Origin: Chlamydiales bacterium
Lineage (GTDB): Bacteria > Chlamydiota > Chlamydiia > Chlamydiales > JBDQID01
Length of the DNA: 64,000 nt
NCBI GenBank assembly: GCA_047611865.1
Contig: JBLFWS010000001.1
Location: 46,517 to 110,516 of the forward strand
Reading direction: 5' to 3'
The translations under genes and the position numbers were made by a program. Under the pieces are notes generated by a model. It saw only the letters and a list, made by a program, of their open reading frames with translations, was not told where the DNA came from and did no database searches. This document shows positions 882 through 19,219 of the stretch, in pieces; the first letter of the stretch is position 1; each line of letters starts with the position of its first letter.

Positions 882-2618
882 TTATGACATAAGCATGTCT
901 GAATGGATTTTGTTGAAGCCATATTTTGATGCAATGGCTAGTGCTGTTTCTCCATTTTCTGTCATCTCATATGGATCGGCCCCTTTCTCAAGTAAGTAAT
1001 GGACCATCTTCCTCTGACCATAGCCTGCAGCTGTATGAAGAAGAGACCAGCCTTTATCATCTCTAGTCGATAAAAGGTTTATCCCATGACCATCAAATAG
1101 CTTTATTAATTTCATTGACCCATTTTCTACTGCCGTAAAAATGGGAGATGATATTCCCATTCCAGTAAATGAAGAACGGGGATCAGCTCCTACTTTAAGG
1201 AGCTTTCCGATCATTTCATACTTATCTTCTCGAACAGCCCATTGAAGAGGTGTTAAGCCATTTTTCATGGGCATGTCCGGGTGGACTCCGAAATCTTTTA
1301 AGCATTCAACAACTTCTTTTCTCTCAAAATTTGCGGCCCCAAACAACAAACCCATTTCGTCTTCTAATGGGCCACCTTTTTCAAACAGAAATTTCACAAT
1401 ATCTATGTGGCCCTTTTGCACCGCTACTTCTATCGGTAAAATCATTGTTTCACTGCTACTGTTTATCTTCAAAGGTTCAGCTTCTTTTTCAAATAAAAGC
1501 TGGAGCATCTCTAGGTCCCCTTTATAAGCCGCGCTAAAAATTGGATTTGCCAAGCTAAGCTTACTCGAATTGAGATTCAGAATTCTTTCTAAAATCTGTC
1601 GCTTCTCATCTTTATTTTCCGCTGGACCCTCACTTTTACAAAACTCTTTAAAGCTCAGTGTTAAAAAAGGCTCATTTTTCTTATTCAGATTTTTTACGAT
1701 GTCTTTAGTAAGCAGATCAACACTTAGAGCTTTCTCAGGTTTCTTTGAATTGTTAGGATCATAAAAATAATATGACTCTCCATCAGAATAAACTCCACAA
1801 GCGTGACTGGTCGTCTTTGAGCTCTGTGTTATTTCAATATATTTTTCTTCTCCTGAATCAAGCCTTTCCTCAAAAAATGCCGATAGACTCGCATACTCTC
1901 CTGATTCATTGGGAGAAAATGGTGCGACAAAATTAAATGATTCATTGCAGCCTTTAATTTCTTCTCTGTCTGAAATAAGCTTTAGCTTATCAAAGTCCTG
2001 AGTCACTCCATTGCTGTCAGGAAACGACTGTAAAAAAATCATCTGGCCTACTAAGTTTTCAATTTCATTTCTCCGATCTTGAGAAACTTCTGAAATTTCA
2101 CCATTTGCAATCAACTCAAGATCCTTATAAAAATCCTCAACTCCATTTGTAAGCATATGATAAGCCCACAAACTAGATAGGCCGTAGCAATGTCCCTGTT
2201 CTATATCTGAATAAAGTTTGATTCCTCCCTGTGAATCAAAATGTTTTTTCACGTTATCTAAGAGATTGTCCTGTGAAAAATCAGTAGGAAGCTCAGTTCT
2301 CTCCCATCGCCCGAACCCGTTGTTCACCGAAAAGTCCAATACTTTTATAACAAGATCTTGCTTCTTATGTGCTTCAATTTCTCCAAAGATCTCATTAATC
2401 CTCATTGTAGTCGGATCACTCATAGAGTTCTCAAGCTTCGCCTCAATTGACTCAGCATCGTGACCGGGGCAGTTAACAAAGATAAAATCTGAAACATCTG
2501 CCAGAAAATTCTGAAGCTTTTCACCCTCTGCACTTCCTAGATCCTTGGATTTATCCATAAAATTCAGCCAGTTAGAAACATCCATATGGTAAGTAGTTTG
2601 AGCTTGTACGCCTGCCAT
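882..2618 (-). CDS. Ankyrin-repeat protein with an N-terminal YopT/C58-like cysteine protease domain (candidate effector)
   Basis: C-terminal ANK repeats (GLTPLQWAV, GWSLLHTAAGYG, GETALAIA) and triad-like motifs GHCYGLSSLW, SHACGV, YFYDPN. Start moved to ATG 2618, which follows an AAGGAG RBS. Confidence 0.8.
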   Translation of the reverse strand: MAGVQAQTTYHMDVSNWLNFMDKSKDLGSAEGEKLQNFLADVSDFIFVNCPGHDAESIEAKLENSMSDPTTMRINEIFGEIEAHKKQDLVIKVLDFSVNNGFGRWERTELPTDFSQDNLLDNVKKHFDSQGGIKLYSDIEQGHCYGLSSLWAYHMLTNGVEDFYKDLELIANGEISEVSQDRRNEIENLVGQMIFLQSFPDSNGVTQDFDKLKLISDREEIKGCNESFNFVAPFSPNESGEYASLSAFFEERLDSGEEKYIEITQSSKTTSHACGVYSDGESYYFYDPNNSKKPEKALSVDLLTKDIVKNLNKKNEPFLTLSFKEFCKSEGPAENKDEKRQILERILNLNSSKLSLANPIFSAAYKGDLEMLQLLFEKEAEPLKINSSSETMILPIEVAVQKGHIDIVKFLFEKGGPLEDEMGLLFGAANFERKEVVECLKDFGVHPDMPMKNGLTPLQWAVREDKYEMIGKLLKVGADPRSSFTGMGISSPIFTAVENGSMKLIKLFDGHGINLLSTRDDKGWSLLHTAAGYGQRKMVHYLLEKGADPYEMTENGETALAIASKYGFNKIHSDMLMS

Positions 2619-2815
2619 CCCTATTCTCCTTAATAACAATATAACTACAATATTAACATCGCCGAATTAACTATACGTAAAGGCTTTGTTTAGTTTTGTA
2701 CAATTTAGACGTAAAACCTTTACAGATTGTTATTAATTACTTAACAAAGTATTCATATTCACCCTGTATAATGTAACTATTATAGTTAAACCTATATCAA
2801 GGGAAATGGAAAGCC

Positions 2816-3468: not shown

Positions 3469-3765
3469 TTATTCGTTCCCCGTGGAATCCTCTTGCTGAT
3501 TTACACCGGAAGAGTCTCTTTCTTCAACAACATGCTCATAAAGCTTTGTATTGGCAGCCCTTTCCAGCTCCTGCCAATAGCCACGATCCATCCAACCATG
3601 GCTGCCATTCCAATAGCTACAAAACCAAAGTATCCCCCAGATGGGAAGAACTACATAAGTGATCTTCAAAAAAGTCGGGATTCCGACATCATCAAACTCG
3701 TCAACCTCATCCTTGCCAAAATGCACAACATGATGTTGCTCCTCGTGTTGATACTCTTCAAACAT
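3469..3765 (-). CDS. Small membrane protein resembling the N-terminal domain of cbb3 subunit CcoP/FixP, without heme motif
   Basis: H..DEVDEFDDVGIP followed by a TM helix resembles FixP_N (H..DGI.EYDNPLP). No CxxCH. Last gene of the cbb3 operon; start ATG 3765 after an RBS. Confidence 0.55.
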   Translation of the reverse strand: MFEEYQHEEQHHVVHFGKDEVDEFDDVGIPTFLKITYVVLPIWGILWFCSYWNGSHGWMDRGYWQELERAANTKLYEHVVEERDSSGVNQQEDSTGNE

Positions 3766-3976
3766 CGCCCTTCTCCTTTTCACTTATACTTTCTTCATCC
3801 TTCATCATTTGATACTTTGGCTCCTCGTCCATATCCAAACGCCCCTTCCGCCACAAGTAAACGAAAACCAGTAAAGCACTACCCACAAAGGCTATTACCA
3901 TAGAATAGTGCATTACCTCACCACAAACACCACCCCCATCAAGAGGAGTCGAATTAGCAAGCATTTTAAAAGTCAT
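3758..3976 (-). CDS. CcoS/FixS-like small membrane protein (start uncertain)
   Basis: TM helix then WRKGRLDMDEEPKYQMMKDEE, similar to the CcoS W..KSGQFDD.E.P..R motif. Confidence 0.6.
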   Translation of the reverse strand: MTFKMLANSTPLDGGGVCGEVMHYSMVIAFVGSALLVFVYLWRKGRLDMDEEPKYQMMKDEESISEKEKGDV

Positions 3977-3989
3977 TTGCACGATACGT

Positions 3990-5273
3990 CTATGCCCCCC
4001 GGCTCCTGCCTTCAATAATGTCAATCGTACGAACAGGGTCCTTTCCGAGCCACCATGCCTGAGTCGGAGGGGTAATTCTTGTGCCCTTCGTCATCAAATA
4101 CTGAAACATCGCCTCAAACTGATAGTTTGGCACCCCAAACGGACTTTTTGAAGTACCCCGAGGGTCTTCATCAAAAAAGTGATGGAAGGCCGGCATAATA
4201 GATCCAGGGCTTTCCGTTTTGGGAGACCAAAAATGTGATTTATGCCAGTCCCGGCTTTGCCGCTTTACCCCAACGCGAGATAAATCAGGCCCAATCCGTC
4301 TAGTTCCTGGAAAGCTTATATTTTGGTAGATATATTCATTCGGTGAGGATGGAGGAGCAGGAAATGAATCAGAACCATTATGAATCGTATCCTGAATTAG
4401 TGTACGCGTTTGGTCAGTATGACAATACCAGCATCCTTCCGCAGCAAAGATCCCTTCACCCATCTGAATTAATTCTTTTCGAGACAAGAAGCTCAACTTT
4501 TCACCTTTCAATTCCTCAAGTCCGTTAATTGAATTTCCATATTTGTCATATTTCCAGCCCTCTTGATTGCCCATCCGAAAATGACTAATATGATACTCCT
4601 GAGGATTGCTAACGTACAAGACACCTAAGTCTTTGTGATAGTCCTGGCGAACACCCGCATCAATAATTTTGTAGTTCTCATCGACCCAGTTTTCTGTAAT
4701 CCCATCACTGTCATAGATCGCAAACGCTTCTTTCATTCCCGGGTCGTAGAGCTCAAGAATATGAAAAAAAGGCTTACGCTCTCCTTTGTCTTTCCAGCTA
4801 GGATGATGCTGCTCCCAATCAATTTGCAGCTCCTGCTGCAATTTTTCTGCCTCAGTAACTGGGTTATAACTTAGATCTTTCCCATTATCCTGAGGATCTC
4901 TAAGTAATAGCAAACGAGAACTTAACTTAATTTCTTTCTCTCCCAATTTGGTAATAAAGCGTCTCAATTCTCTTGGGGCCACTATTCGAGTAGTTTCTGT
5001 CTCTGAAAAATTCAGCAAATCATTATCTTCACGAAGGTGGTATACAGCCTGAATATCCCCACTACCAGTTTGCGCGGTACTAATGTAGACGTTCGGGTCT
5101 GAGATTTCATACATCTGCTTTTGGTAGACACTGGAAGGCTTTGTCCAGTTTGGATCTACATACCTCGGAGCAATCACTGTCACTGCTACTGCTGAAGAAA
5201 AAAGGAGAACAACTCCAATTACTGTAAGCACGGCAGAGCTCTCTACCTTTCCCATAAATCCATTAGTACTCAT
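3990..5273 (-). CDS. ccoO: cbb3-type cytochrome c oxidase subunit II with a long N-terminal insertion
   Basis: AEGCWYCHTDQTR, GTRRIGPDLSRVG, PGSIMPAF; start overlaps the ccoN stop. Confidence 0.85.
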   Translation of the reverse strand: MSTNGFMGKVESSAVLTVIGVVLLFSSAVAVTVIAPRYVDPNWTKPSSVYQKQMYEISDPNVYISTAQTGSGDIQAVYHLREDNDLLNFSETETTRIVAPRELRRFITKLGEKEIKLSSRLLLLRDPQDNGKDLSYNPVTEAEKLQQELQIDWEQHHPSWKDKGERKPFFHILELYDPGMKEAFAIYDSDGITENWVDENYKIIDAGVRQDYHKDLGVLYVSNPQEYHISHFRMGNQEGWKYDKYGNSINGLEELKGEKLSFLSRKELIQMGEGIFAAEGCWYCHTDQTRTLIQDTIHNGSDSFPAPPSSPNEYIYQNISFPGTRRIGPDLSRVGVKRQSRDWHKSHFWSPKTESPGSIMPAFHHFFDEDPRGTSKSPFGVPNYQFEAMFQYLMTKGTRITPPTQAWWLGKDPVRTIDIIEGRSRGA

Positions 5274-6703
5274 GCTTCTCCGCCAAGATCTGATTTTTTC
5301 ATATCCTTTTTCGGATCAAGGATAATGGTATTAAACATATTGACTGCAAACAAAATATTACCCAATAAGATAAGAACCCCTGCTAAGCCTCTCAAAACCC
5401 ACCAAACTCTGGACATCTCAATAGTTTGCAGAAATGACAACTGACTGATGTTGTTGTGGAATTCAGCGTAGCTACTCCCATTTGCCCAAGAAGCCCATTG
5501 CATTCCCTGCAAGTAACCTCCAATCCACAAAGCACTAAACATCAACAAAGATCCAGCAAGATTTAGAGTAAAGTGCCAATTAGAAAGTCTTTCAGACCAA
5601 ATGGGCTTTTTTGTCATCACATGAACAGAGTGATAAACCCCAGCAATAGCAAAGTATGTAAAAGCTCCGTAGAGGGCCATATGTGCGTGTCCAATAATCC
5701 AATCTGTCTTTGACGTTATTTCATTGACGTTACGCAATGATTGTAAGGGTCCCTGTATACATGTTAGGAGATAAAAGAGCGTTCCCATCATCAAAAAACG
5801 GATCGGAGCACTTTGAGTGTACAAACCCCAATGTCCCTTAAGGGTCATGAAAAAGTTTGCAATTACTGTCCAAACTGGAATAAATAACCATATAGAGAAA
5901 ATAATAGCCACTGTTTGGAGCCACTGTGAAATAGGCCCATGAATAATATGGTGGGCACCTACCCATGCGTAAGTCAACGCTATTGTCCAAAATCCAATCA
6001 TAGAAAGTCTGTGACTATATATGGGAACCTTAGCAATTCGTGGGAGAAAGTAATATGCCGCAGCAACACCCATGGGTGTAAATATTAAGCCCACAAGGTT
6101 GTGTACATAGAAAAATGAAGCATTCACTTTTGATATACCCCCTGGAAGAAATTCCAGGCCAAAATTCCCTATTACAAAAGTAAAAGTCGTCCAGACCAAG
6201 GATCCCATCGTATACCAGAGCGATACATACATCTTCTTAAACTTTCTGTCTGCGATGGTCATGAAAATATTCACGGAAAAAGTAAGCCAAGCTACGGTAA
6301 ATATAGCTTTTACCGGTATCCACCCACCAAGCATCATAGGAAGCTCTGCATATTCCCAACCATAGTTTGTCCCAAAGGGAAATGAGTACACTCCCACTAC
6401 CAAAGAAAACCACCAAAGAGCACAGGTATAGTTCGCAAGTTTTGTGCTCCATAAGGGTGTTCCACAAAGCCTGGGAACGAAAAAATATATTAGTCCAGCG
6501 TCTACTGATAGAAGCCACAGTAACGTCACATGACCTACATGTACCGGCCTAAGCCGACCAAAGTGAACATACTCACCTCTGAAATAATCAGGAAAAACAA
6601 AGCCATTAAAAGAAATGAATACACCCATACTCAAGCCTATCACCAAAAAGATGATGGCAGGATAAATCATTTGCTTTGCAGCCCTGTCATTAAATTCAAT
6701 CAT
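5270..6703 (-). CDS. ccoN: cbb3-type (C-family) heme-copper oxidase catalytic subunit
   Basis: GRLRPVH, FYVHNLVG, YAWVGAHH (helix VII Tyr plus CuB His-His), DWIIGHAH. Confidence 0.9.
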   Translation of the reverse strand: MIEFNDRAAKQMIYPAIIFLVIGLSMGVFISFNGFVFPDYFRGEYVHFGRLRPVHVGHVTLLWLLSVDAGLIYFFVPRLCGTPLWSTKLANYTCALWWFSLVVGVYSFPFGTNYGWEYAELPMMLGGWIPVKAIFTVAWLTFSVNIFMTIADRKFKKMYVSLWYTMGSLVWTTFTFVIGNFGLEFLPGGISKVNASFFYVHNLVGLIFTPMGVAAAYYFLPRIAKVPIYSHRLSMIGFWTIALTYAWVGAHHIIHGPISQWLQTVAIIFSIWLFIPVWTVIANFFMTLKGHWGLYTQSAPIRFLMMGTLFYLLTCIQGPLQSLRNVNEITSKTDWIIGHAHMALYGAFTYFAIAGVYHSVHVMTKKPIWSERLSNWHFTLNLAGSLLMFSALWIGGYLQGMQWASWANGSSYAEFHNNISQLSFLQTIEMSRVWWVLRGLAGVLILLGNILFAVNMFNTIILDPKKDMKKSDLGGEA

Positions 6704-6713
6704 TTGGAACCCC

Positions 6714-9700
6714 TCAAGATCTATCGCTCACAAAAGTCGCAATCTTTTCTTTGTAGTTTTCATATATCTCCGCTTGCTTTGAACGAGACTGAGCTGCTAA
6801 ACGCATCTGTGAAAGCAGTACAGCTTTCATGCCCTTCATTGCTTCAAGCCGCTCTCCAACCTTAGCCAATTCATCACTTCGCTCAAGAGAGGGTAACTTC
6901 CCTCTTAATCTATCCACTTTCCTCTGATTCACATCCACCTGATGATCGAGATCGCGAACAATTTCCTGAGCCTTATTCTGCATAAAGCGCTCTCGATAAG
7001 GATCTTTTTCCATTAGCAAGTCGCCGTTGAGCCTCGTATACCGACCTTTGTTTAAAGCAATGATTTCAAATAATTTCGTGATGATTTTTTCATCTGCCTT
7101 TTTTGCTATAAATCGCAAGCCAATTTCCGAGTAAAACTTTTGTTCATCGTCGAATTCATCCTTTAAATTCAAGAGAATAGCATCTACTTCTTTTCGCTTC
7201 TTCAAATGATCCATAACTACCAGCTCTTTAGAATAGGACCGAGCAGCTTCTTCTAAAGTAATTGTTCCCTCTTGGGATTTTTCATAATTGTCTTGTCTTG
7301 CCCGAAGGGCCCGCTTGTATTCCCCCTGCAAAACATTCAGTTTTTTACCTTCAATGTTTCGGGTGTCAGAAATAGCTCTTCCTGTAGTTTCAAACGCATT
7401 AAAAAGAACACTCACCATGTCTTCCCGGTGTTTCTTTTCAACACTCAGACTTCGAATAAACATCACCAACTGAATTCTCTGCAGTGTATTTGTCTTGTCA
7501 CCCCACGGGGTCATGGCTGTGCCAGGAACCCCGTATTTAATGGAACGGAGAAGGCGCAAATCATCCCTTGTTTTCAACCAGGGAAGATTTGTTAGCATGC
7601 GGGGCTTGGCCTCCTCCATCGTAGCCGAACGAGGTCCATCTCCAGCTGCTTCCTTTCCATGACAGTGACTACAGTTAGCAAGAAACAAGCTCCCACCTTC
7701 AGAAATATTTTTCTCTGTATAATACTTCTGCTTTATGAAGAACTCCTTTTCTTCAACTCCCTCAACGGCATCCTTCACATCGAAAACCTCATCTACTTCC
7801 GGGGCTTTCCCTATTTTTTTTTCTTCTGACTTAAAAAACTTTGTGGCTAATAAAAAATTAGGAATAAAGCCTGAGCTCAGTACTTCACTCATAGAATCAT
7901 CAACTTTATCTTCTGTCTCACCCTGTAAAACATCTTTTTCTTCATACAGCTCTTTCAAGACATCTTCAGGTGTGTATTTCCATTTTTCAACATCATTCTC
8001 GGACTTAATGACGTGCGCTCCAGGTAAAGACTGAAACAACCAGTCTACAATACGTTCTATTTCTGATTCTTTTAAAAGGGCCGAGCTATCTCCCAGCTCT
8101 GCCGCTGCTGCGGTTTCCCCCCATGGTGGCATGGGGGTGCCCTGAACACCGTGGGTAATTGAATTCACAGCTCTTTCCCGAGTTAAATTTCTCAAGAAAG
8201 TAGCATCTCGAAGATTCTTAGGAATAGGATATATCCATTGAGATACCGTCCCCTTACCGTGAAAATGCTCGCCATGACACTGCATACAGTGCCACTCATA
8301 AGCCATCGCGGGGTCGAAGCCTCGCTCGTCCCAAATTTCCCGTAAGCTATCTCTATTCTGCTTGCCAAGCACCCGAAGCATATTTGTCAAAGCATAAAAC
8401 TTACTTTCATCCAGCGGCATTACAGGCATTATTGATCTTGCTGTATAAGCTGATGGGTTTCGGAAGTGACCTATAAGCCATTCGTTATCACGATATACAC
8501 CAGACCAATGCAATCGTGGGGCAATATCTCTACCTAGACCATATTCTTGAATGTACATCATGAACACGCGCTGAACGAGATCTTTGTAATGTTCATGCTC
8601 TTCTAATATTCGGCTTCTTTCAGTAGAGCTTTCCGCTTTTGCGATTAACTGCTCATAATGGTGATTCTTTGCTCTCATTGCATATTTGAAAGGGCTATAA
8701 AATGAGCTCAAAATCTTTGGAGTCTTTTCCTCAATCTTTTCCAGTATTGAAGACTCACGAACATTTTGAACAATCCGCTTATCAATCTCCTGACCCTTTT
8801 GGTCAATCATATCGACAATTCGCGAACCAATAAGATCTTCTGGAAACAGCCGGTAGAACCACTGTCGTTCTTTAAATACTTCCTTAAAAGAAGCCTCTTC
8901 TTTCTCTACTCGATAACCAACATTAGACTCAAAACCTTTCAGCCTATGACATGAAGCACAACCCTCATTAGTGTATATGTCCATAGCCACTTCCACATCA
9001 TTCCACTCTGAAACGGGTAGAGGTTTTTCCCAAGCGCGCTTCTTTCCCCCAGCCCACTCCTTGAGAGAAACTTGTGTCAACACTTCAGAAGTTGTCTTGT
9101 CTTCCTTTCTTTGTGCCATCAGAAAGGCTAATAAATCTTCCACTTCCTCATGATCGAGCTTAAAGTTTGGCATTGTTGAAGTTTTCAAATTCGATTGAGG
9201 CCAAACAATTGCCTCTTTGACATACCAAGGATACATCTGTCCAATTTCTGAAAGATCCGGACCCACCTGCCCCCTGGATAAGCCGCCAATTTTGTGGCAA
9301 GCATAACAGGCTGTACTCATGTAAAGCTGCTGTCCTCGAAAGTAACTACCCATTGCATCTTCTGCATCCGACCTTAGGCCATGTACTAACTCTTGATCCA
9401 ATATCGCTGTTTCCAGGGGCGCCTTCACCCTATCCATAAGCTGAATAACCTCACCAGCTTCTTCCATCGCAGCCATTTTAGCAAAAATACTTCCTGAAAT
9501 ACCCTTTCCATTTGAAACATGTCGAGAGAGAAAACCCAAAAGGGTCTCAGTAGGACTTGAAGCCAACGCTCTGGCTTCTGCCTCCAACTTTCTCAAATAG
9601 ATTTCTGAACCCAGAATTTTGGAAATTTCACCATTTATCGCATTTAATACCGCTTCGTCGTCTACATATTTGTCGGTTTTTTGTAGGTAGTCCTGAACTC

Positions 9701-10817
9701 CTGACAAAAGGCTTATTCGAAAAGCAAGAGCTCGCTGCTCCCCTTCACCAAGAGAAATGTCTTGCAATTCCTCACTCATCATCTCAAGAGTTCTACGGGA
9801 GCCTATGTTTTCCAATGAATCTTTTATCTCCAACAAGGCAAATAGCGCCTTTTGGTCGTTAGCAACCCCTTGCCCTATAGCTTCAGCTTGTTTTTCCTTA
9901 CGTGTTGTCACAGCTTCAACTGTTGTATACGCCTGTTGAAGCTCTTCTCCACCTGATTGGTGACACTGCGCACACTTTGCCTGCATCAATCCGGAAACAT
10001 AGAGGGGTGTTGTTTGAAAAAGCAGGTGATGTCCCGGCCTGCCATTAAACACTCTGGCCATTGCAGGATCGTTTTCTTCATCATTCTCAGTGAAAACTAT
10101 TTTATGCCCCTCTGAAGACTCTTCATAGGTTCCATCATAAACCGGCCCATGGGCCCTTCCGGATGTAATAGATCGCCCATTACCATTGTGACAAACAACA
10201 CAACCAATTTCATCAGAGGAATGATACTCAAAAGGACGCTCTTCTCTACCAATCAGTGGGTGCATAGCAAGAGCTTTGGTCATATCCAGGGAATGCCCAT
10301 GCTCTTCAATAGATTTCAAATGACTCAGACGTTCAGCCTCATCCAGGCGCCGCTGAATTTCTTCTTCTTCACCATTTTCTCTAAGCTGTTCTATAAGCTT
10401 TTTATCCGTGAGTGACGCTACCTTAGTATCAAGAAGCTTCCATACGTACTCTTCATTTTCGATTTGTACAGGACGGCCATTCTCTCCGATAATCATGTTG
10501 CCATTTATATCATAAGCTATTTTTGTAGGAGAAAAATGACTCAACTTTAAAGCTACATGACATGTGGTACAGCGATCTATAGTTTCCGGACCTTTGTCTT
10601 CCTTGGGGATAACAATCTGTTTAATTCCCAATTTAAAATCAGGGGCCCGTTCACCCGTATGAGTTGAGCGAAATTCCTCAAGATCTACATAAGTATTTTG
10701 ATAGATCTTATATTCGGGAAACATCTCATAGTAGACGAAAACCCCAAATAATAATGCCGATACCACTGATAGAGAAATCAGTATTATTTGGTAAATGTCA
10801 GCCCGATCAAAACGCAT
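6714..10817 (-). CDS. Large membrane-anchored multiheme cytochrome c (7 CxxCH motifs)
   Basis: CTTCH, CVVCH, CAQCH, CYACH, CASCH, CMQCH, CSHCH; N-terminal TM anchor; several MP axial-ligand motifs. Confidence 0.9.
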   Translation of the reverse strand: MRFDRADIYQIILISLSVVSALLFGVFVYYEMFPEYKIYQNTYVDLEEFRSTHTGERAPDFKLGIKQIVIPKEDKGPETIDRCTTCHVALKLSHFSPTKIAYDINGNMIIGENGRPVQIENEEYVWKLLDTKVASLTDKKLIEQLRENGEEEEIQRRLDEAERLSHLKSIEEHGHSLDMTKALAMHPLIGREERPFEYHSSDEIGCVVCHNGNGRSITSGRAHGPVYDGTYEESSEGHKIVFTENDEENDPAMARVFNGRPGHHLLFQTTPLYVSGLMQAKCAQCHQSGGEELQQAYTTVEAVTTRKEKQAEAIGQGVANDQKALFALLEIKDSLENIGSRRTLEMMSEELQDISLGEGEQRALAFRISLLSGVQDYLQKTDKYVDDEAVLNAINGEISKILGSEIYLRKLEAEARALASSPTETLLGFLSRHVSNGKGISGSIFAKMAAMEEAGEVIQLMDRVKAPLETAILDQELVHGLRSDAEDAMGSYFRGQQLYMSTACYACHKIGGLSRGQVGPDLSEIGQMYPWYVKEAIVWPQSNLKTSTMPNFKLDHEEVEDLLAFLMAQRKEDKTTSEVLTQVSLKEWAGGKKRAWEKPLPVSEWNDVEVAMDIYTNEGCASCHRLKGFESNVGYRVEKEEASFKEVFKERQWFYRLFPEDLIGSRIVDMIDQKGQEIDKRIVQNVRESSILEKIEEKTPKILSSFYSPFKYAMRAKNHHYEQLIAKAESSTERSRILEEHEHYKDLVQRVFMMYIQEYGLGRDIAPRLHWSGVYRDNEWLIGHFRNPSAYTARSIMPVMPLDESKFYALTNMLRVLGKQNRDSLREIWDERGFDPAMAYEWHCMQCHGEHFHGKGTVSQWIYPIPKNLRDATFLRNLTRERAVNSITHGVQGTPMPPWGETAAAAELGDSSALLKESEIERIVDWLFQSLPGAHVIKSENDVEKWKYTPEDVLKELYEEKDVLQGETEDKVDDSMSEVLSSGFIPNFLLATKFFKSEEKKIGKAPEVDEVFDVKDAVEGVEEKEFFIKQKYYTEKNISEGGSLFLANCSHCHGKEAAGDGPRSATMEEAKPRMLTNLPWLKTRDDLRLLRSIKYGVPGTAMTPWGDKTNTLQRIQLVMFIRSLSVEKKHREDMVSVLFNAFETTGRAISDTRNIEGKKLNVLQGEYKRALRARQDNYEKSQEGTITLEEAARSYSKELVVMDHLKKRKEVDAILLNLKDEFDDEQKFYSEIGLRFIAKKADEKIITKLFEIIALNKGRYTRLNGDLLMEKDPYRERFMQNKAQEIVRDLDHQVDVNQRKVDRLRGKLPSLERSDELAKVGERLEAMKGMKAVLLSQMRLAAQSRSKQAEIYENYKEKIATFVSDRS

Positions 10818-10832
10818 TATCGTCTCCCACCA

Positions 10833-12158
10833 TTAGTGTCTTGCAAAGTTCTCCGTCCATGGCCAAATCCATCCCCAGTTTGCCCCTCTGAAGTACGTTC
10901 CAATTATTACCAGGATTCCCTGTGTCGTCATAAAAAACGTGTACAAAAATATCGCCATATATCGGCTGCGGTGATACCACACGCCTGATCCATAGGGATT
11001 TCTATCAAGATAAGGGACTACCATAAGCCCCACAACAATTAACCCTGGTATTCCTACACCACCCCAGAAAGCACTATAAGCAACCATCTCTTGAAGACCC
11101 AGAAAATACCACGGAGCCTTTGAGGGATTGGGGGGTTTTGTTGCGTTCGCCGCCTCTTCCAATGGTGCATCTATAAATGATAAAATCATGATCAAAACTA
11201 CGGTAAACATAAATGCAATTAACTCGGCACGAAGAAGGTGCGGCCAAGTAAATATGTAGTTATATGGTCCCCTATCAACAGTGGGACACGTCCCTCTAAC
11301 AAGCTCCATTAAGCCGTAGGTTCTGCGAACCCCCGGCGCAAAAGTCTCCTTAGTATCCGATCTTTGTACAACACGATAGGGTTCTGGTGAAACTTTGTCC
11401 GGAGGACGCGCCAAGCCACCATCTTTTCTAATACGCCAGAAGTGTACTCCTATTAAAATCCCCGCGGCAAGGGGGAGCACCATCACGTGAAGTACGTAAA
11501 ATCGTATGAGTGCATCTTGTCCAACGCTGGTGGACGCAATAAGCATAATACGGTTAATGTTGTGTTCCATTCCGGGTATTCCCGGAGCATAGCCAGCAAT
11601 TTCAGATCCTACAGTTACCGCCCAAAATGCCAGCTGATCCCAAGGAAGAAGGTATCCAGTAAAAGACAGCAGGAGGGTAAGCACCATTAGAATCACGCCA
11701 ATTACCCAGTTAAATCTTCTTTCTCCTTTATAGGAACCCATATAGAAGACACGCGACATATGGAGAAAGACGAACAACACCATCATGTGTGCACCCCAGC
11801 GGTGCAAATTACGAAACATCTGAGCGAAAGGCGTCACATCCTGCCAGTCTTTCATAATGTCGTAAGCCCTGTCTTCTGCAGGCACATAATAAAACATAAG
11901 CACCACACCAGTGATCACCAGTGTAATAAACAGGCTCATCGTAATGGAGCCGAGACCCAAAGTCTTGAAAAAATCCGTTGTGCTTTTGTGACATTTCACC
12001 GGGTGAATATGAAGGAAGAAGTTCTTAAAAACAATTTCTGATCGGTCAACATCATTGTTGGGATAACCATGACGAAAGATGGAACGTACCACTAGTTTAG
12101 GAAGGTTCTCTAGGTACTCCAACCAGGTCTCTCTCTTTTCCCCTTTAAAAACTGCCAT
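10833..12158 (-). CDS. Cytochrome b of a Rieske/cyt b complex (b6-like N-terminus fused to subunit IV)
   Basis: RNLHRWGAH, LHMSRVF, FTGYLLPWDQ, FYVLH...VHFW; Qo-site variant PNPSKAPWYF. Confidence 0.92.
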   Translation of the reverse strand: MAVFKGEKRETWLEYLENLPKLVVRSIFRHGYPNNDVDRSEIVFKNFFLHIHPVKCHKSTTDFFKTLGLGSITMSLFITLVITGVVLMFYYVPAEDRAYDIMKDWQDVTPFAQMFRNLHRWGAHMMVLFVFLHMSRVFYMGSYKGERRFNWVIGVILMVLTLLLSFTGYLLPWDQLAFWAVTVGSEIAGYAPGIPGMEHNINRIMLIASTSVGQDALIRFYVLHVMVLPLAAGILIGVHFWRIRKDGGLARPPDKVSPEPYRVVQRSDTKETFAPGVRRTYGLMELVRGTCPTVDRGPYNYIFTWPHLLRAELIAFMFTVVLIMILSFIDAPLEEAANATKPPNPSKAPWYFLGLQEMVAYSAFWGGVGIPGLIVVGLMVVPYLDRNPYGSGVWYHRSRYMAIFLYTFFMTTQGILVIIGTYFRGANWGWIWPWTENFARH

Positions 12159-12196
12159 GTGCTTACGCTCTCCTCAAAACATCTTCATTGTGCTGT

Positions 12197-12712
12197 CTAA
12201 ACATACCATGCAACCTGTGGATCGTGTATTAGTTTTGTTTTATCTGCCAGAAGTTCTCCTGACGCTCCTTTTGAAACATTAAAATATACCAATGGGCTAG
12301 GAGCAGGCCCTCCCGTATTAAAGCCATTCCGATCATATGTTGATCCGTGACATGGACATTGATATCCTGTTTCTACAGCGTTAACAGTGCAGCCCAAGTG
12401 AGTACAAACTGCCGTTTGAACACGTACTTTTCCAGAAACCACCTCAACAAAACACTTGAACTTCTCCAGAAAAACCTTTCCCTCTGTTGCCAGAACATCC
12501 TCTGGCCTTCCAATTGAAAAAACGCTAGGCGGAATTTTCAGAGCGTTAGGGTAAAGAAAACCCATAAGCGCAACACTCACAGCTCCTCCAACACCCATAC
12601 ACACACCCGTTCCCATCAAGGCAAGAAAAGTCCTTCTTGTAATTTTTGGGTCATTGCTCTTAGGATCCACGTTTAATGAATTTCGAAACCTAGGCATAAC
12701 ACCCTCCTTCAT
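12197..12712 (-). CDS. Rieske [2Fe-2S] protein with twin-arginine signal
   Basis: TRRTFL Tat motif; CTHLGC and CPCHGS. Confidence 0.93.
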   Translation of the reverse strand: MKEGVMPRFRNSLNVDPKSNDPKITRRTFLALMGTGVCMGVGGAVSVALMGFLYPNALKIPPSVFSIGRPEDVLATEGKVFLEKFKCFVEVVSGKVRVQTAVCTHLGCTVNAVETGYQCPCHGSTYDRNGFNTGGPAPSPLVYFNVSKGASGELLADKTKLIHDPQVAWYV

Positions 12713-12852
12713 TCTCCATTTTGTTCCTCATCACGAAACATCTGGTATTTAACATCTTCCAAATCATCGAACTGCCCTTTTTTCCAAAAATAGACAAAGA
12801 CTCCAGTCGCCGCTAACCCACCAATTAATGTCGCTGCAAGATATACTACCAC
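12709..12852 (-). CDS. ccoS: CcoS/FixS-family small membrane protein (47 aa, not in the ORF track)
   Basis: Hand translation from GTG at 12852 (AAGGGG 7 nt upstream): MVVYLAATLIGGLAATGVFVYFWKKGQFDDLEDVKYQMFRDEEQNGE*. Its TGA overlaps the Rieske ATG (ATGA). Confidence 0.75.
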   Translation of the reverse strand: MVVYLAATLIGGLAATGVFVYFWKKGQFDDLEDVKYQMFRDEEQNGE

Positions 12853-12869
12853 TCCATCGCCCCTTCATA

Positions 12870-14702
12870 CTATCCAATCCACCGAAAAGAGTAATTCATC
12901 GTATCCATTGTAACAGCTTGAGTAGGACATTTTTCGGCACACAACCCACAACGTATACAAAGGTCTTCATCTTTCAACATTGCAGACCCTGCTGTATTAA
13001 GTTCTTCAGCTGTCATTTCAGAAGAATCGAATCCATAGTTATTGTCCACAGCTTTACGCATATTGCCCTCTCCCCAATCCAAGTTCAATTTCGATAAAGG
13101 TATCAACGTAAGACAATTTGTAGGGCAAACATCTACACAACCATTACATTTTATACAAAGAGATCCATCAAATACTGGACTTACATGACACTGTAAACAA
13201 CGACTTGCTTGCTGATGCGCCTCTTCTGCAGTATAAGGATTTTCAACAATATTTAGATTTTTCCGCCTCTCCTCTGCCGGCTGAAGAGAAGGAAGAGACC
13301 ATTTTGTACTCAGGTATTCTTTATCTCGCATAGGTGGAATTGTTCTGAACTCTCCAACGAACTCCTGGTAAGGCTTTGTTCCTCTCAAATCACTGTCAAT
13401 AGCCCTTGCAGATTCTTGCCCATGACGTATTGCTGTAATGAACAACGCAGGCCCATATCCGGCATCCCCCCCACAATAAATCCCATTTACAGATGTTCTA
13501 CCAGTTCCTCTTTCTACTTTTATAATTCCCCTTTCAAGGGTAAGGTCAGCTTTCTTGTCCCACCCGTCAAAAAGACTCGTATCCATTCCCTGGCCGATAG
13601 CTAAAGCTATGGTATCACAAGGCACAACATACTCTGTTCCTTCAACAAACTCGGGTGAAAAACCCCCTTTATGATTAAAAAGTCGAGAGATCTTCTGTAC
13701 ACGCAGCCCAATAATCTTCCCGTCGCTGTCACGTTCCACCGCCTTTGGACCTAGCCTGTTGAGGACCTCAATTCCCTCTTCAAGCGCATCTTCAATCTCA
13801 AATTCATCAGCTGTTTGTTCATCTCGAGATTCCAGGCAAACCAGAGTAACCTTATCAGCTCCATTGCGTATAGAAGACCGCGCCACATCGTAAGATACGT
13901 TACCCCCACCAACAACGACTATATGATTACCTATTCTCCATTTCCCCCCGCCCGTAATCACCTTAAGATACTCTACGCCTCTGATTATGTCTGCCTGGTC
14001 TGTTCCGGGAATGGGTAACTCTCGGGACTTCCATAAACCATTGCCGATAAAAATCGCGTCATACTTTTCCTGCATTTCAGTAATCGTTATATCTCGGCCA
14101 ACTTTCGTATTATAGTGGATATTAGCGCCCAAGTATTCTATCGCATAGCATTCGTTGATGATTACATCATTTTTCAGTCTGTAATTGGGGACACCATAGG
14201 TTAACATCCCCCCTGGCATACTCATCATTTCATAAATATCGACAGAATATCCCAAGCGAAGAAGGTCGTGTGCTGCCGTTAACGAGGCCACTCCCGCCCC
14301 TATGCAACCCACCTTCATTCCATTCGGTTTTGGGTTGGTCGTTCCACGTGAGTAGCTAAATTCCAGAGCTTTAATGTGAGCTTCCTTATCCACCCCGAAC
14401 CACTCATCGAGAAAACGTTTTTGTGCACGAATGGTAAGAGTTTTATCTACTCGATCTCTCCGACAGGCTGTTTCACAGGGAGCCCCGCATATCCATCCAC
14501 AGATAGACGCGAAAGGATTAGGCCCTCGAGCAATTTTATAACCCTCCAAAAGGTTACCTGCTTGTAACGCAAGCATATACCCTCGAGCATCTGTATTAAC
14601 AGGACATCCGTCGCGACAGTCGATTTGTTTCAGATAATAATCTAGATCTGGAATAACAACGTCATAACTATCTTTATAGATATCAACCAGCTCTTTTGAC
14701 AC
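12870..14702 (-). CDS. FAD/NAD(P)-binding Fe-S oxidoreductase (GltD/NfnB/DsrL-like) with a C-terminal 2[4Fe-4S] ferredoxin domain
   Basis: CRDGCP...ICGWICGAPCETAC, GGMLTYGVPNYRL, VVGGGNV, SRCLQC, CIKCNGCVDVCP, CIRCGLCAEKCP. Confidence 0.88.
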   Translation of the reverse strand: MSKELVDIYKDSYDVVIPDLDYYLKQIDCRDGCPVNTDARGYMLALQAGNLLEGYKIARGPNPFASICGWICGAPCETACRRDRVDKTLTIRAQKRFLDEWFGVDKEAHIKALEFSYSRGTTNPKPNGMKVGCIGAGVASLTAAHDLLRLGYSVDIYEMMSMPGGMLTYGVPNYRLKNDVIINECYAIEYLGANIHYNTKVGRDITITEMQEKYDAIFIGNGLWKSRELPIPGTDQADIIRGVEYLKVITGGGKWRIGNHIVVVGGGNVSYDVARSSIRNGADKVTLVCLESRDEQTADEFEIEDALEEGIEVLNRLGPKAVERDSDGKIIGLRVQKISRLFNHKGGFSPEFVEGTEYVVPCDTIALAIGQGMDTSLFDGWDKKADLTLERGIIKVERGTGRTSVNGIYCGGDAGYGPALFITAIRHGQESARAIDSDLRGTKPYQEFVGEFRTIPPMRDKEYLSTKWSLPSLQPAEERRKNLNIVENPYTAEEAHQQASRCLQCHVSPVFDGSLCIKCNGCVDVCPTNCLTLIPLSKLNLDWGEGNMRKAVDNNYGFDSSEMTAEELNTAGSAMLKDEDLCIRCGLCAEKCPTQAVTMDTMNYSFRWIG

Positions 14703-14920: not shown

Positions 14921-16498
14921 ATGCATCTTGTCATAGTCAACACCAGTTCCAAGGGTGGAAAAGAGTTACAAACCGCTCTACTGCAGGAATCTTACAAAGA
15001 TGGGAACGATCTAAAAACACGCACCATTGCCAAGCTCATGGAGTGTACGGAAGATGAGATCCATGCTGTACAGATGGCATTCCAACACAAAGACAAAATG
15101 CTTAAACTGAACCTTCCTAAACTACCGTCAAATACACACAGCCCTCAAGTTCTTAAACAAAACACTCCCATTGGGGCCGCATGGGTTGCAAAATCCGTCG
15201 CAGAATACTTAGGTATCGCTGATGCCCTTGGCACAACAAAGCCTGGTAAATTAGCCCTGCTCCAAATTTTGTCTCATGTTGTTGAACCCACCCTATACCC
15301 CCTTTCCAGGTTTGCTGAACAAACTCATTATTTAATTAACTCTCTTGACCTCCCCATCGACATTGATGCAAAAGACCTTCACAGAGACCTGACATGGTTA
15401 TCGAAAAACAAGTCCAAAATAGAAAAGAGAATATTCAAGTTTCGCACCAAGGGGGTTTCTGACCGCCTTTTCTTTTACAATATCTCCAGCCCATACCTCT
15501 CCACCCGCCTGAACCCTCTTGAAATTTTTGAACGAAACCTAGATCAAAGTCACTTCCCGGGGCTGGGTCTTCTATGTGATCAAGAAGGCTACCCCGTATC
15601 CATTTGCCTACCTAATCCAGAGAAAAACCAAACAGTGCTTGATAATGCTCTAAAATTAGCCAAAGACTACTCCGTAGATTCTGTTACAGTTGTACGTCAT
15701 AACTCCAGCTCTATGGAAAAAGATAACATCCCTCAGGTTGCAAACTATCTTTCACATGTCACCTCTCCCGAAGACATAGCGTTCCTCAAAGCACACATAC
15801 TCCTGGATAAAGTTGAAGACCTTAGTCTCACAAAAAGAAACGACCACAAACACTTTCTTATCAAAAGGGACCCAAAGCGCTCGAAAATTCTTAAAGAAAT
15901 GCGCGAAGACCAGCTCAAGCATGCTGAACTACTCATCAATAAAGCTAACGAAAAGCTTAAAGAACAACCCACATCTTCAACAACAATTTTACAAAGCCTC
16001 CAGAGGGCCATCGAAAACATTGGAGGCTCTGAATGGCTTAAGGTACAAGAGTCTGATGTGGGGTTTATCCATGAAGTCAACCAGGAAAAGCTCAATGAAT
16101 TTTCCACCTTAGACGGCTGTCAGATTTTGGAATCCAACCTCCCTTTTAGCGGCACTTCACCAGAAATCCTTTTGGATCGCTTTAAAAACCAAAAACTTAT
16201 CGAAGAAGCCTTTCGTAACCACAGCCCTGGTTTCCACGACCTCGAGCTTGCCGATAGCCTCTTAGAAAGCACCCTTCGAGGACACTCCTTGTTGCTAATG
16301 CTCGCCTTTCTCATTAACCGCACCCTCGGAAAGGCCTGGTCTCCCTTGGGCGTTACTCCCGAGGAGGGATTAAGGGAGCTTTCTGGTATCTGTTCAATGA
16401 ATATCGGAAACAAAACCTACATAACAGAGCCCAACAAAGCCACCCAGCAACTTCTTGAAGCCTTAAACCTTAAACTACCCACTCAGACAGACTTATGA
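14921..16498 (+). CDS. IS1634-family transposase-derived protein, catalytic Asp residues apparently lost
   Basis: End-to-end resemblance to IS1634 transposases (LLQESYKDG..KTRTIAKL, GKLALLQ, GLLCDQEGYPVS, LDGC, IEEAFR, LRGH..LMLAF, TPEEGL). No IS ends seen; stop overlaps the sfsA start. Confidence 0.75.
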   Translation: MHLVIVNTSSKGGKELQTALLQESYKDGNDLKTRTIAKLMECTEDEIHAVQMAFQHKDKMLKLNLPKLPSNTHSPQVLKQNTPIGAAWVAKSVAEYLGIADALGTTKPGKLALLQILSHVVEPTLYPLSRFAEQTHYLINSLDLPIDIDAKDLHRDLTWLSKNKSKIEKRIFKFRTKGVSDRLFFYNISSPYLSTRLNPLEIFERNLDQSHFPGLGLLCDQEGYPVSICLPNPEKNQTVLDNALKLAKDYSVDSVTVVRHNSSSMEKDNIPQVANYLSHVTSPEDIAFLKAHILLDKVEDLSLTKRNDHKHFLIKRDPKRSKILKEMREDQLKHAELLINKANEKLKEQPTSSTTILQSLQRAIENIGGSEWLKVQESDVGFIHEVNQEKLNEFSTLDGCQILESNLPFSGTSPEILLDRFKNQKLIEEAFRNHSPGFHDLELADSLLESTLRGHSLLLMLAFLINRTLGKAWSPLGVTPEEGLRELSGICSMNIGNKTYITEPNKATQQLLEALNLKLPTQTDL

Positions 16499-18232: not shown

Positions 18233-19219
18233 CTATTGCTCGCCAGGCCAAAACTCTTCAATAATCTTGTAAACTTCAGCCCTTGTTTCGACCTTCGTTA
18301 TCGCCCTGCGAAAATCTCTAGCTCTTTTGTCTTTTTTGAAATACCAACAGCCAAGCCTTCGGACATCAGTAACAGCCTTTTTTTCACTATAATACTGAAG
18401 TGAGTGTTCAAAGTGCTCAACAAGAGCGTCGCGATATGCCGTTTCAGGGCGAATAAGCTCTTCCATCCCACTAAGTCTGCGATAGACATCTTCTGCTATC
18501 CACGGCTGCCCCAACGTTCCCCTGGAAACCAATATCCCATCACAGTTCGTATGCTCAAAAATTCGTTCAGCTGCCTCTGCATCGAAAATATCTCCATTCC
18601 CGATCACCTTGATGTTTTTCGCAACCTGCTTACATGCTTTTATATGGTCCCAGTTTGCATTCCCTTTATAAGCCTGAGCCCTCGTCCGACCGTGTATTGT
18701 AATCATTTTAGCTCCAGCCTCTTCTGCCACACGAGTGATCTCTTCTGCGTTAATGTGGCCATCATCCCAGCCCGCTCGAATCTTTACTGTTACTGGAATT
18801 TTTACCGCAGCCACCATATTAGCTAAAACTTCCCCAATAAGCTGGGGCGTCTTTAGCATCCCCGATCCACCGCCATCTTTTGTTACTTTATCTACGGGAC
18901 AGCCACAGTTAAGGTCCACAACATCGAAGCCCAGGTCCTCTATAATTTTGGCTGCCTGACCCGCAATTTCTGGTTTACTCCCAACTATTTGCCCCCCAAT
19001 AGGATGCATACCCGATTCATAGTCGAGGAGGTGAAAGGTTGTCGCATCACTACGAACCAACGCGTCCATTTTCACCATTTCGCAAAAAACCAACCCCGGG
19101 TTGTAGCGAGAAGACATTCTGCGAAAAGGCAAATCTGAACACCCCGCAAGGGGCGCGTAAAAGACGTTACTTGGAAGCTCCAGGTCGCCCAATAGAAATG
19201 GTGTTTTCAAGTGACTCAT
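18233..19219 (-). CDS. dusB: tRNA-dihydrouridine synthase B
   Basis: APLAGCSDLPFR, DLNCGCP, VTVKIRAGWD, TIHGRTR, IGNGDI. Confidence 0.92.
   Translation of the reverse strand: MSHLKTPFLLGDLELPSNVFYAPLAGCSDLPFRRMSSRYNPGLVFCEMVKMDALVRSDATTFHLLDYESGMHPIGGQIVGSKPEIAGQAAKIIEDLGFDVVDLNCGCPVDKVTKDGGGSGMLKTPQLIGEVLANMVAAVKIPVTVKIRAGWDDGHINAEEITRVAEEAGAKMITIHGRTRAQAYKGNANWDHIKACKQVAKNIKVIGNGDIFDAEAAERIFEHTNCDGILVSRGTLGQPWIAEDVYRRLSGMEELIRPETAYRDALVEHFEHSLQYYSEKKAVTDVRRLGCWYFKKDKRARDFRRAITKVETRAEVYKIIEEFWPGEQ

Follow-up and report, generated by a model that had tools for sequence, protein, structure and literature searches.

An operon joining a GltD-like flavoprotein to a Rieske/cytochrome b complex and a cbb3 oxidase in chlamydiae, and its possible use in O2-driven reduction of NAD+

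Why should a flavoprotein of the kind that handles pyridine nucleotides be encoded together with respiratory complexes III and IV, and in which direction would electrons pass through it? This question is raised by a nine-gene operon in a 64,000-nucleotide stretch of DNA (hereafter the window) from a Chlamydiales bacterium (assembly GCA_047611865.1, contig JBLFWS010000001.1, positions 46,517 to 110,516). The operon encodes an iron-sulfur flavoprotein, a Rieske protein and cytochrome b, a seven-heme c-type cytochrome and a cbb3-type oxidase. A preliminary description of the window proposed a III–IV supercomplex that either takes electrons from NAD(P)H or couples quinol oxidation by O2 to reduction of NAD(P)+ or ferredoxin. 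The analysis reported here indicates that a single membrane assembly is probably the product of the nine genes, and gives O2-driven electron bifurcation from menaquinol to NAD+ a probability just short of even.

Whether flavoprotein-bearing Rieske/cytochrome b complexes reduce NAD(P)+ by bifurcation has been an open question since it was proposed for anammox bacteria, and a 2025 study of Kuenenia reports models and the potentials of Rieske proteins, without turnover (PMC12954380). The NAD+-directed reaction has so far been proposed for anammox bacteria. The nine-gene set is kept by many environmental chlamydiae and some soil Acidobacteria. CcoN proteins closely related to that of this variant, with O2 as sink, occur in soil bacteria that have been cultured (Occallatibacter savannae), so that the reaction could be assayed.

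Conservation of the gene set in chlamydiae

All nine open reading frames (ORFs) named in the preliminary description were found on the minus strand, running from 14702 down to 3469, with gaps (computed from the longest ORFs) of 17, -4, 38, 15, 10, -4, -35 and -26 bp; judged from this spacing, they would be co-transcribed. Chance grouping is ruled out by the gene order of relatives, since the flavoprotein gene lies directly before ccoS in 17 of the 18 loci, among 20 fetched, that extend upstream of cytochrome b. Two genes are inserted at this point in the remaining locus, which comes from a single-contig genome and carries two unrelated genes of 520 and 562 aa between the flavoprotein gene and ccoS (L035:12146-15697). 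Among 30 further chlamydial loci, 17 are complete to ccoO, 6 stop at the locus edge and 7 are flagged as broken (one borderline); a ccoN ortholog is kept elsewhere in all seven genomes with broken synteny.

Presence and absence follow the same pattern. Of 61 genomes of the order, 22 encode cytochrome b, 21 encode the flavoprotein and 23 have ccoN, and all three are absent from 38. The two mismatches are contig ends (cytochrome b begins at a contig edge in G018; the seven-heme gene runs off the contig in G011), and once these are allowed for, the three genes occupy the same genomes. Compared with the window proteins, cytochrome b averages 80% identity, the flavoprotein 74%, the Rieske protein 67%, CcoN 64%, CcoO 58% and the seven-heme protein 43%; the flavoprotein is thus better conserved than either the Rieske protein or CcoN. 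It can be stated with high confidence that the nine genes form one conserved unit, and the operon is ancient in chlamydiae. In the phylum as a whole, a flavoprotein ortholog is encoded in 71 of the 296 genomes with a completeness of 92% or more. One chlamydial genome has a second full-length copy, 42% identical (G311:C155:292-2127). The respiratory genes of the operon are present in one copy each in the window's genome (G000, 95.5% complete), and the operon's oxidase is the sole heme-copper oxidase of this genome, which additionally encodes a bd oxidase.

Occurrence of the module in Acidobacteriota

A profile of 29 non-chlamydial flavoprotein relatives, 40-53% identical to its first row, was searched against metagenome contigs, through which alone other phyla were covered, and the best 80 of 405 matches yielded 70 loci. 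The flavoprotein gene adjoins Rieske/cytochrome b genes with no cbb3 genes in view in 46 loci, both sets in 4, and cbb3 genes with no Rieske/cytochrome b genes in view in another 4; the remainder comprise two loci without a partner and 14 of insufficient length to tell. It therefore adjoins Rieske/cytochrome b or cbb3 genes in 54 of the 56 informative loci. Protein clusters of the cbb3-linked loci were named Bryobacteraceae, Terracidiphilus and Occallatibacter savannae, and the order of their genes is ccoS, Rieske, cytochrome b, seven-heme cytochrome, ccoN, ccoO, ccoS-like, CcoP-N-like and flavoprotein, followed by DsbD-like, ccoG-like and ccoI-like genes. Because the flavoprotein gene is first in chlamydiae and last in Acidobacteriota, its link to the set survives rearrangement. 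The flavoprotein is thus conserved beside Rieske/cytochrome b in relatives, as the proposal of the preliminary description requires. Being common to Acidobacteriota, the module is not special to chlamydiae or to the wider Planctomycetes-Verrucomicrobia-Chlamydiae (PVC) group.

Trees of cytochrome b and the flavoprotein, built from 31 of 54 paired rows, agree in their main groups. Both place the chlamydial sequences with the cbb3-linked acidobacterial ones, with moderate support only: 91/92 in the cytochrome b tree, in which one long-branch row lies inside the group, and a Shimodaira-Hasegawa-like approximate likelihood ratio test value of 94 in the flavoprotein tree, where the branch concerned is very short and lies at the midpoint root. 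These groupings suggest a single origin of the cbb3-linked form. Queries with the acidobacterial ccoG-like and DsbD-like proteins found no homolog in the window's genome, in which two CcsA-like genes for cytochrome c assembly do occur.

Identity and cofactor of the flavoprotein

The AlphaFold2 model of the flavoprotein has a mean confidence (pLDDT) of 91. No transmembrane helix is predicted, the cysteines for four [4Fe-4S] clusters are kept, and an invariant arginine (R584) lies inside the last cluster motif. The best matches in the PDB are 9bov_A, 8oh5_C and 9n5u_A, and the nearest structures are NfnA/StnC subunits rather than NfnB. We take the GltD-like domain of these best structural matches to be a plain two-electron site.

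The motif YRR is a mark of NADP(H) use in NfnB and DsrL-2 (PMC7596348). It occurs in 0 of 54 and 0 of 31 aligned flavoprotein rows, which carry CLES and variants at that position; since the motif is missing, the protein is predicted to use NAD(H) rather than NADP(H). The earlier, undifferentiated assignment to NAD(P) would thus narrow to its NAD(H) half. Its companion assignment, an NfnB/DsrL-like protein, holds for the DsrL domain order (ferredoxin, FAD/NAD(P), linker, ferredoxin) and the GltD-type fold but not for the family itself. DsrL was rejected as an identity, as a search for dsrA in the window's genome returned no match. Although NfnB/NfnL, NfnA/StnC and GltD are likewise alike in fold and cofactors, NfnB was rejected because the protein has no YRR and its operon no NfnA-type small-subunit partner. 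GltD was also rejected; a separate GltD gene adjoins gltB on contig C73 of the window's genome. No evidence was found for the reduction of ferredoxin that had been suggested as an alternative to that of NAD(P)+.

Rieske protein, cytochrome b and quinone

The kinship with anammox Rieske/cytochrome b proteins noted in the preliminary description is borne out by the two best PDB matches of the Rieske protein, both of them from Kuenenia (9rk3 and 9rk4). All 44 chlamydial copies carry HGS-x-Y, in which the Ser and Tyr that follow the second cluster motif are a high-potential signature; the 48 non-chlamydial copies have Ser/Phe (44), Ser/Tyr (3) or no such motif (1). The Kuenenia homologs, one Ser/Tyr and one Ser/Phe, were measured at +303 and +335 mV, from which a potential of about -475 mV was inferred for heme bP by the authors (PMC12954380).

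In cytochrome b, the four heme histidines (H119, H133, H224 and H239) are invariant in 54 of 54 sequences, and the quinol oxidation (Qo) motif is APWY, with K-A-P-W invariant. The inner side is altered: Gly68 occupies the position of the heme-ci cysteine of b6, and no such cysteine occurs in any of 55 aligned sequences. Arg244 sits five residues past the last heme histidine, at what is presumably the Qi-site histidine position of bc1 complexes. A further histidine outside the four canonical ligands, His50, is invariant (55/55). Models of the anammox complexes place a new heme b at the dimer interface between two N-terminal histidines, facing an arginine of the oxidoreductase (PMC12954380). By analogy, His50 and Arg584 of the flavoprotein are likely the equivalents of these interface residues.

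The quinone is indicated by biosynthesis genes, as menaquinone synthesis is encoded in all 23 carrier genomes tested (menB in 12, the futalosine route in 11). UbiG passes its cut-off in only 2 of the 23, and ubiquinone is accordingly rejected as the substrate for most carriers.

The seven-heme cytochrome and the oxidase

All 39 full-length copies of the chlamydial seven-heme family have seven hemes, and those of the 1367-aa protein map one-to-one onto an acidobacterial protein of about 610 aa. The protein would serve as the wire from the Rieske protein to CcoO, replacing both cytochrome c1/f and the CcoP hemes; no intact (diheme) ccoP is found in the operon. Since it is the sole candidate for such a wire among the nine gene products, there is a genetic argument for a III–IV supercomplex as previously proposed: the complexes are linked genetically, and their physical assembly is likely. 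Derivation of the last two hemes from CcoP was considered and is unsupported, the sole PDB hit being the anammox cytochrome 6h5l_B. Chlamydial members of the family range from 1078 to 1450 aa and CcoO reaches 427 aa, against about 610 and 189 aa in Acidobacteriota; the extra length consists of poorly conserved inserts between heme domains.

CcoN is divergent, scoring 265 bits against TIGR00780, under the equivalog cut-off of 583. It retains the six histidine ligands and the cross-link tyrosine of transmembrane helix 7 in every chlamydial (31) and every acidobacterial (5) copy, and its CcoO partner is present. Since the metal ligands and the tyrosine are intact, CcoN is expected to reduce O2. 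All 36 copies (31 chlamydial and 5 acidobacterial, including L082, L085, L092, L094 and L109) have Gln317 and Gly237 in place of Glu323 and His243 of Pseudomonas stutzeri. We take the latter two residues to be important for proton handling; no paper on the role of either was found in a literature search. The substitutions may define a cbb3 subtype with altered handling of protons or Na+. Two Acidobacteria in which cbb3 was not detectably expressed at nanomolar O2 have operons of ccoNO and one further gene (PMC8407424), and their oxidases may be of a different type from the one described here.

A possible route from menaquinol to NAD+

The reaction proposed for the assembly would begin with oxidation of menaquinol at the APWY Qo site. 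The first electron would reach O2 by way of the high-potential Rieske protein, the seven hemes and CcoO/CcoN. The second would travel via hemes bL and bH to an additional heme bound by His50 at the interface of the dimer, and from there through four [4Fe-4S] clusters and FAD to NAD+, with no quinone as acceptor. The NADH formed would be reoxidized by Na+-NQR or complex I, returning electrons to menaquinone and pumping more ions, so that part of the wide span from menaquinone to O2, wasted in a normal Q cycle, would be captured. The NAD+ link may also run both ways. The exit of the low-potential electron to NAD+ is favored because a menaquinone user here has a high-potential Rieske protein together with an altered inner site.

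Energetics were calculated from assumed textbook values (menaquinone -74 mV, Rieske about +300 mV): the symmetry rule used by Hauser et al. puts heme bL at about -450 mV, below NAD+, and the overall reaction would have a surplus of about 1.3 eV. The partners needed for reoxidation are also encoded. Nqr or Nuo occurs in 69 of the 71 carriers and NDH-2 in one more, so that 70 of 71 have another NADH:quinone oxidoreductase; the idea that carriers do without another NADH dehydrogenase was accordingly rejected. The specific form of the proposal, a one-operon 'NAD+-reducing oxidase' in which an O2-driven, quinone-based bifurcating III–IV supercomplex delivers electrons through a fifth heme b to NAD+ in place of the Qi-site quinone, is tentative and stands appreciably below even probability. 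If true, such an oxidase, looped via Na+-NQR or complex I, would give menaquinone users a novel way of respiring aerobically at a higher yield, built with a divergent cbb3 enzyme (Glu323Gln, His243Gly) and a seven-heme chain that replaces both cytochrome c1 and CcoP.

Several points weigh against the NAD+-directed route. With the assumed +300 mV Rieske protein, the margin for NAD+ reduction shrinks to about +30 to -20 mV at a membrane potential of 100-150 mV. The presumed position of the heme-ci ligand still holds Glu312 in 45 of 55 cytochrome b sequences, and an inner-side site may therefore persist. Equivalence of His50 to Kuenenia His43/His62 is putative. NqrF is found in 19 of 38 non-carriers too, which makes its co-occurrence weak evidence, and the genomes, being kin, are not independent. 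One carrier (G009, 94% complete) gave no match to NqrB, NqrF, NuoF, NuoH or NDH-2; two soluble transhydrogenase (SthA) genes score above the NCBIfam cut-off in this genome (L153, L154). It is also not obvious why a heterotroph should make NADH. Finally, APWY was read by Kao and Hunte as a mark of reverse-running complexes (PMC4122944).

The same assembly could instead run in the opposite direction, with NADH feeding the iron-sulfur chain of the flavoprotein and the inner quinone site, which would yield a self-contained NADH-to-O2 chain equivalent to NDH-2, a Q cycle and cbb3. This is a substantial possibility, though distinctly less than an even one. Such a flow would be downhill and would suit a heterotroph and the predicted NAD(H) specificity, and Glu312 is mostly kept; it would also provide for G009, in which no other NADH dehydrogenase was detected, the window's genome having Nqr only. 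However, it would lose about 250 mV per electron that Nqr or Nuo would conserve, yet nearly all carriers keep one of these enzymes, and an energy-loss argument of this kind has also been made for the anammox complexes (PMC12954380). It further leaves unexplained the high-potential Rieske protein of menaquinone users and the missing heme-ci cysteine, the features that favor NAD+ as the acceptor.

It is unlikely that the flavoprotein has no fixed part in a Q cycle and acts as a redox valve or O2-protection branch, passing excess NADH to the oxidase or buffering the b hemes, or that it bifurcates to ferredoxin at its flavin in the manner of NfnB. The NfnB/GltD fold, the additional bd oxidase and a CcoN in which pumping may be altered by the loss of Glu323 and His243 would fit such roles. 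Nevertheless, the missing small subunit and the structural likeness to NfnA and StnC argue against flavin bifurcation, and flavoprotein identity of 70-78% across families, with all-or-none retention, points to a core role.

Reverse electron transport, in which the seven-heme protein would take electrons from a high-potential periplasmic donor, pass some to O2 and, by a reversed Q cycle, drive others up to NAD+ in the manner of iron or nitrite oxidizers, is very unlikely. The reading of APWY by Kao and Hunte (PMC4122944) would favor it, as would a close flavoprotein homolog from Nitrospirota and a separate DmsE/MtrA-like multiheme gene in the window's genome. The operon encodes no donor oxidase in either the chlamydial or the acidobacterial loci. 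These hosts are, moreover, heterotrophs. That the flavoprotein is an unrelated neighbor of an ordinary bc-cbb3 operon, as two partnerless loci among the 56 informative metagenome ones and broken synteny in 6-7 of 30 chlamydial ones might hint, is scarcely credible given the co-occurrence of the genes, their retention together after a change of order, the matching main groups of the two trees and the co-migration reported for the anammox subunits (cited in PMC12954380).

Relation to known systems

Cytochromes b of Waddlia, Parachlamydia, Estrella and Rubidus are listed in the alignment and tree of subfamily G, which co-occurs with an NAD(P)-binding iron-sulfur oxidoreductase (Dibrova 2017, PMC5600118). 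Since Waddlia and Parachlamydia are listed and the orthologs are 76-88% identical across the order, the window's cytochrome b can be placed in this published clade. Figure S1 of the same paper maps gene neighborhoods, and the operon may already be drawn there. Waddlia was also classed as APWY with an S-Y Rieske protein, no APWY complex having been characterized (Kao and Hunte 2014, PMC4122944). The relevant passages of these two papers make no mention of a cbb3 linkage, of NAD versus NADP or of a chlamydial operon. No description of a flavoprotein-Rieske/cytochrome b-cbb3 operon was found in the literature searched, subscription papers lying outside the search; the cytochrome b is thus already in published trees, whereas its coupling to cbb3 is undescribed in the texts searched. 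PetBD and CcoN/O were assigned to chlamydial ancestors with no link drawn between them, and complexes III and IV were treated as separate gains (Dharamshi 2023, PMC9816063). The picture of chlamydial respiration changes in that the genes of the two complexes go together as a single set, along with a flavoprotein unmentioned in the corresponding passages of that paper.

The closest described counterparts are the complexes of Kuenenia stuttgartiensis encoded by Kustd1480-1485 and Kuste4569-4574, which, as described in PMC12954380, have in common with the operon a Rieske protein, a b6-like cytochrome b, a multiheme cytochrome c in place of c1/f, a four-cluster FAD oxidoreductase, a menaquinone-using host and a high-potential Rieske signature. 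They differ in having a split b6 and subunit IV with covalently bound heme cN, whereas the chlamydial protein is fused and lacks the heme-cN cysteine, and in their sink, a proposed nitrite reductase rather than a cbb3 O2 reductase in a heterotrophic endosymbiont. By this comparison, the operon would encode an anammox-like NAD(P)-linked complex without the split cytochrome b and heme cN but with an O2 sink. In the bc1-cbb3 supercomplex of Pseudomonas aeruginosa, Rieske/cytochrome b is likewise wired to cbb3 by bound c-type cytochromes, but the bc1 is canonical, the wires are cytochromes c4/c5, CcoP is full and a cytoplasmic flavoprotein is absent (PMC10556555), in contrast to the single seven-heme chain, missing intact ccoP and divergent CcoN of the operon.

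Operon layout and neighboring genes

Predicted products of the operon are listed in Table 1. Over 34 aa, the two CcoS-like peptides share 53% identity. Identification of the last ORF as a ccoP-N stub, as made in the preliminary description, proved weak: Pfam and NCBIfam scans of it gave no match, FixP_N matched one of 13 scanned family members below the cut-off (E 0.006), and a profile of 21 family sequences gave three PDB hits, of which CcoP was the first and third (E 0.21 and 0.89). The single-helix peptide is kept in both chlamydial and acidobacterial loci.

Table 1. Genes of the operon, in order of transcription, with positions in the window.
Feature	Position	Strand	Basis
610-aa GltD/NfnA-like flavoprotein, predicted FAD and 4x[4Fe-4S], C-terminal 2x[4Fe-4S] domain	12870..14702	minus	family matches, motif alignment, AlphaFold2
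CcoS/FixS-like cbb3 maturation peptide 1, 47 aa	12709..12852	minus	family match, E 3.5e-6
Rieske [2Fe-2S] protein, twin-arginine-like N-terminus	12197..12712	minus	family match, motif alignment, PDB search
Fused cytochrome b6 and subunit IV, subfamily G, 441 aa	10833..12158	minus	family match, alignment
Membrane-anchored seven-heme cytochrome c, 1367 aa, exactly 7 CxxCH	6714..10817	minus	motif count
CcoN, family C heme-copper oxidase subunit I	5270..6703	minus	family match, ligand alignment
CcoO monoheme subunit, 427 aa	3990..5273	minus	family match
CcoS-like peptide 2; probable start ATG at 3976	3758..4024	minus	likeness to peptide 1
Single-helix membrane peptide, weakly like CcoP N-terminal anchor	3469..3783	minus	profile searches

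A scan for promoters and terminators was uninformative, with 21 promoter-like sites where 22.3 were expected and 15 terminator-like sites where the expectation was 8.7 +/- 3.3. Elsewhere in the window's genome, contig C185 (230-1045, minus strand) carries the small multiheme cytochrome c mentioned above, with 7 CxxCH and a DmsE/MtrA-like appearance by eye; such a gene is unusual among chlamydiae and may be a contaminant. The gene immediately upstream of the operon (14921-16498), on the plus strand and thus opposite to it, is IS1634-family transposase-like and scores just under the model cut-off. In many chlamydiae (L025, L028, L029, L030, L036, L038, L039 and L040), dusB (18233-19219 in the window) lies a short way upstream of the operon, which suggests an old, fixed chromosomal position. 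On the other side of the operon (882-2639, minus strand) is a gene for an ankyrin-repeat protein with a weakly C58 peptidase-like N-terminal region and the look of a secreted effector.

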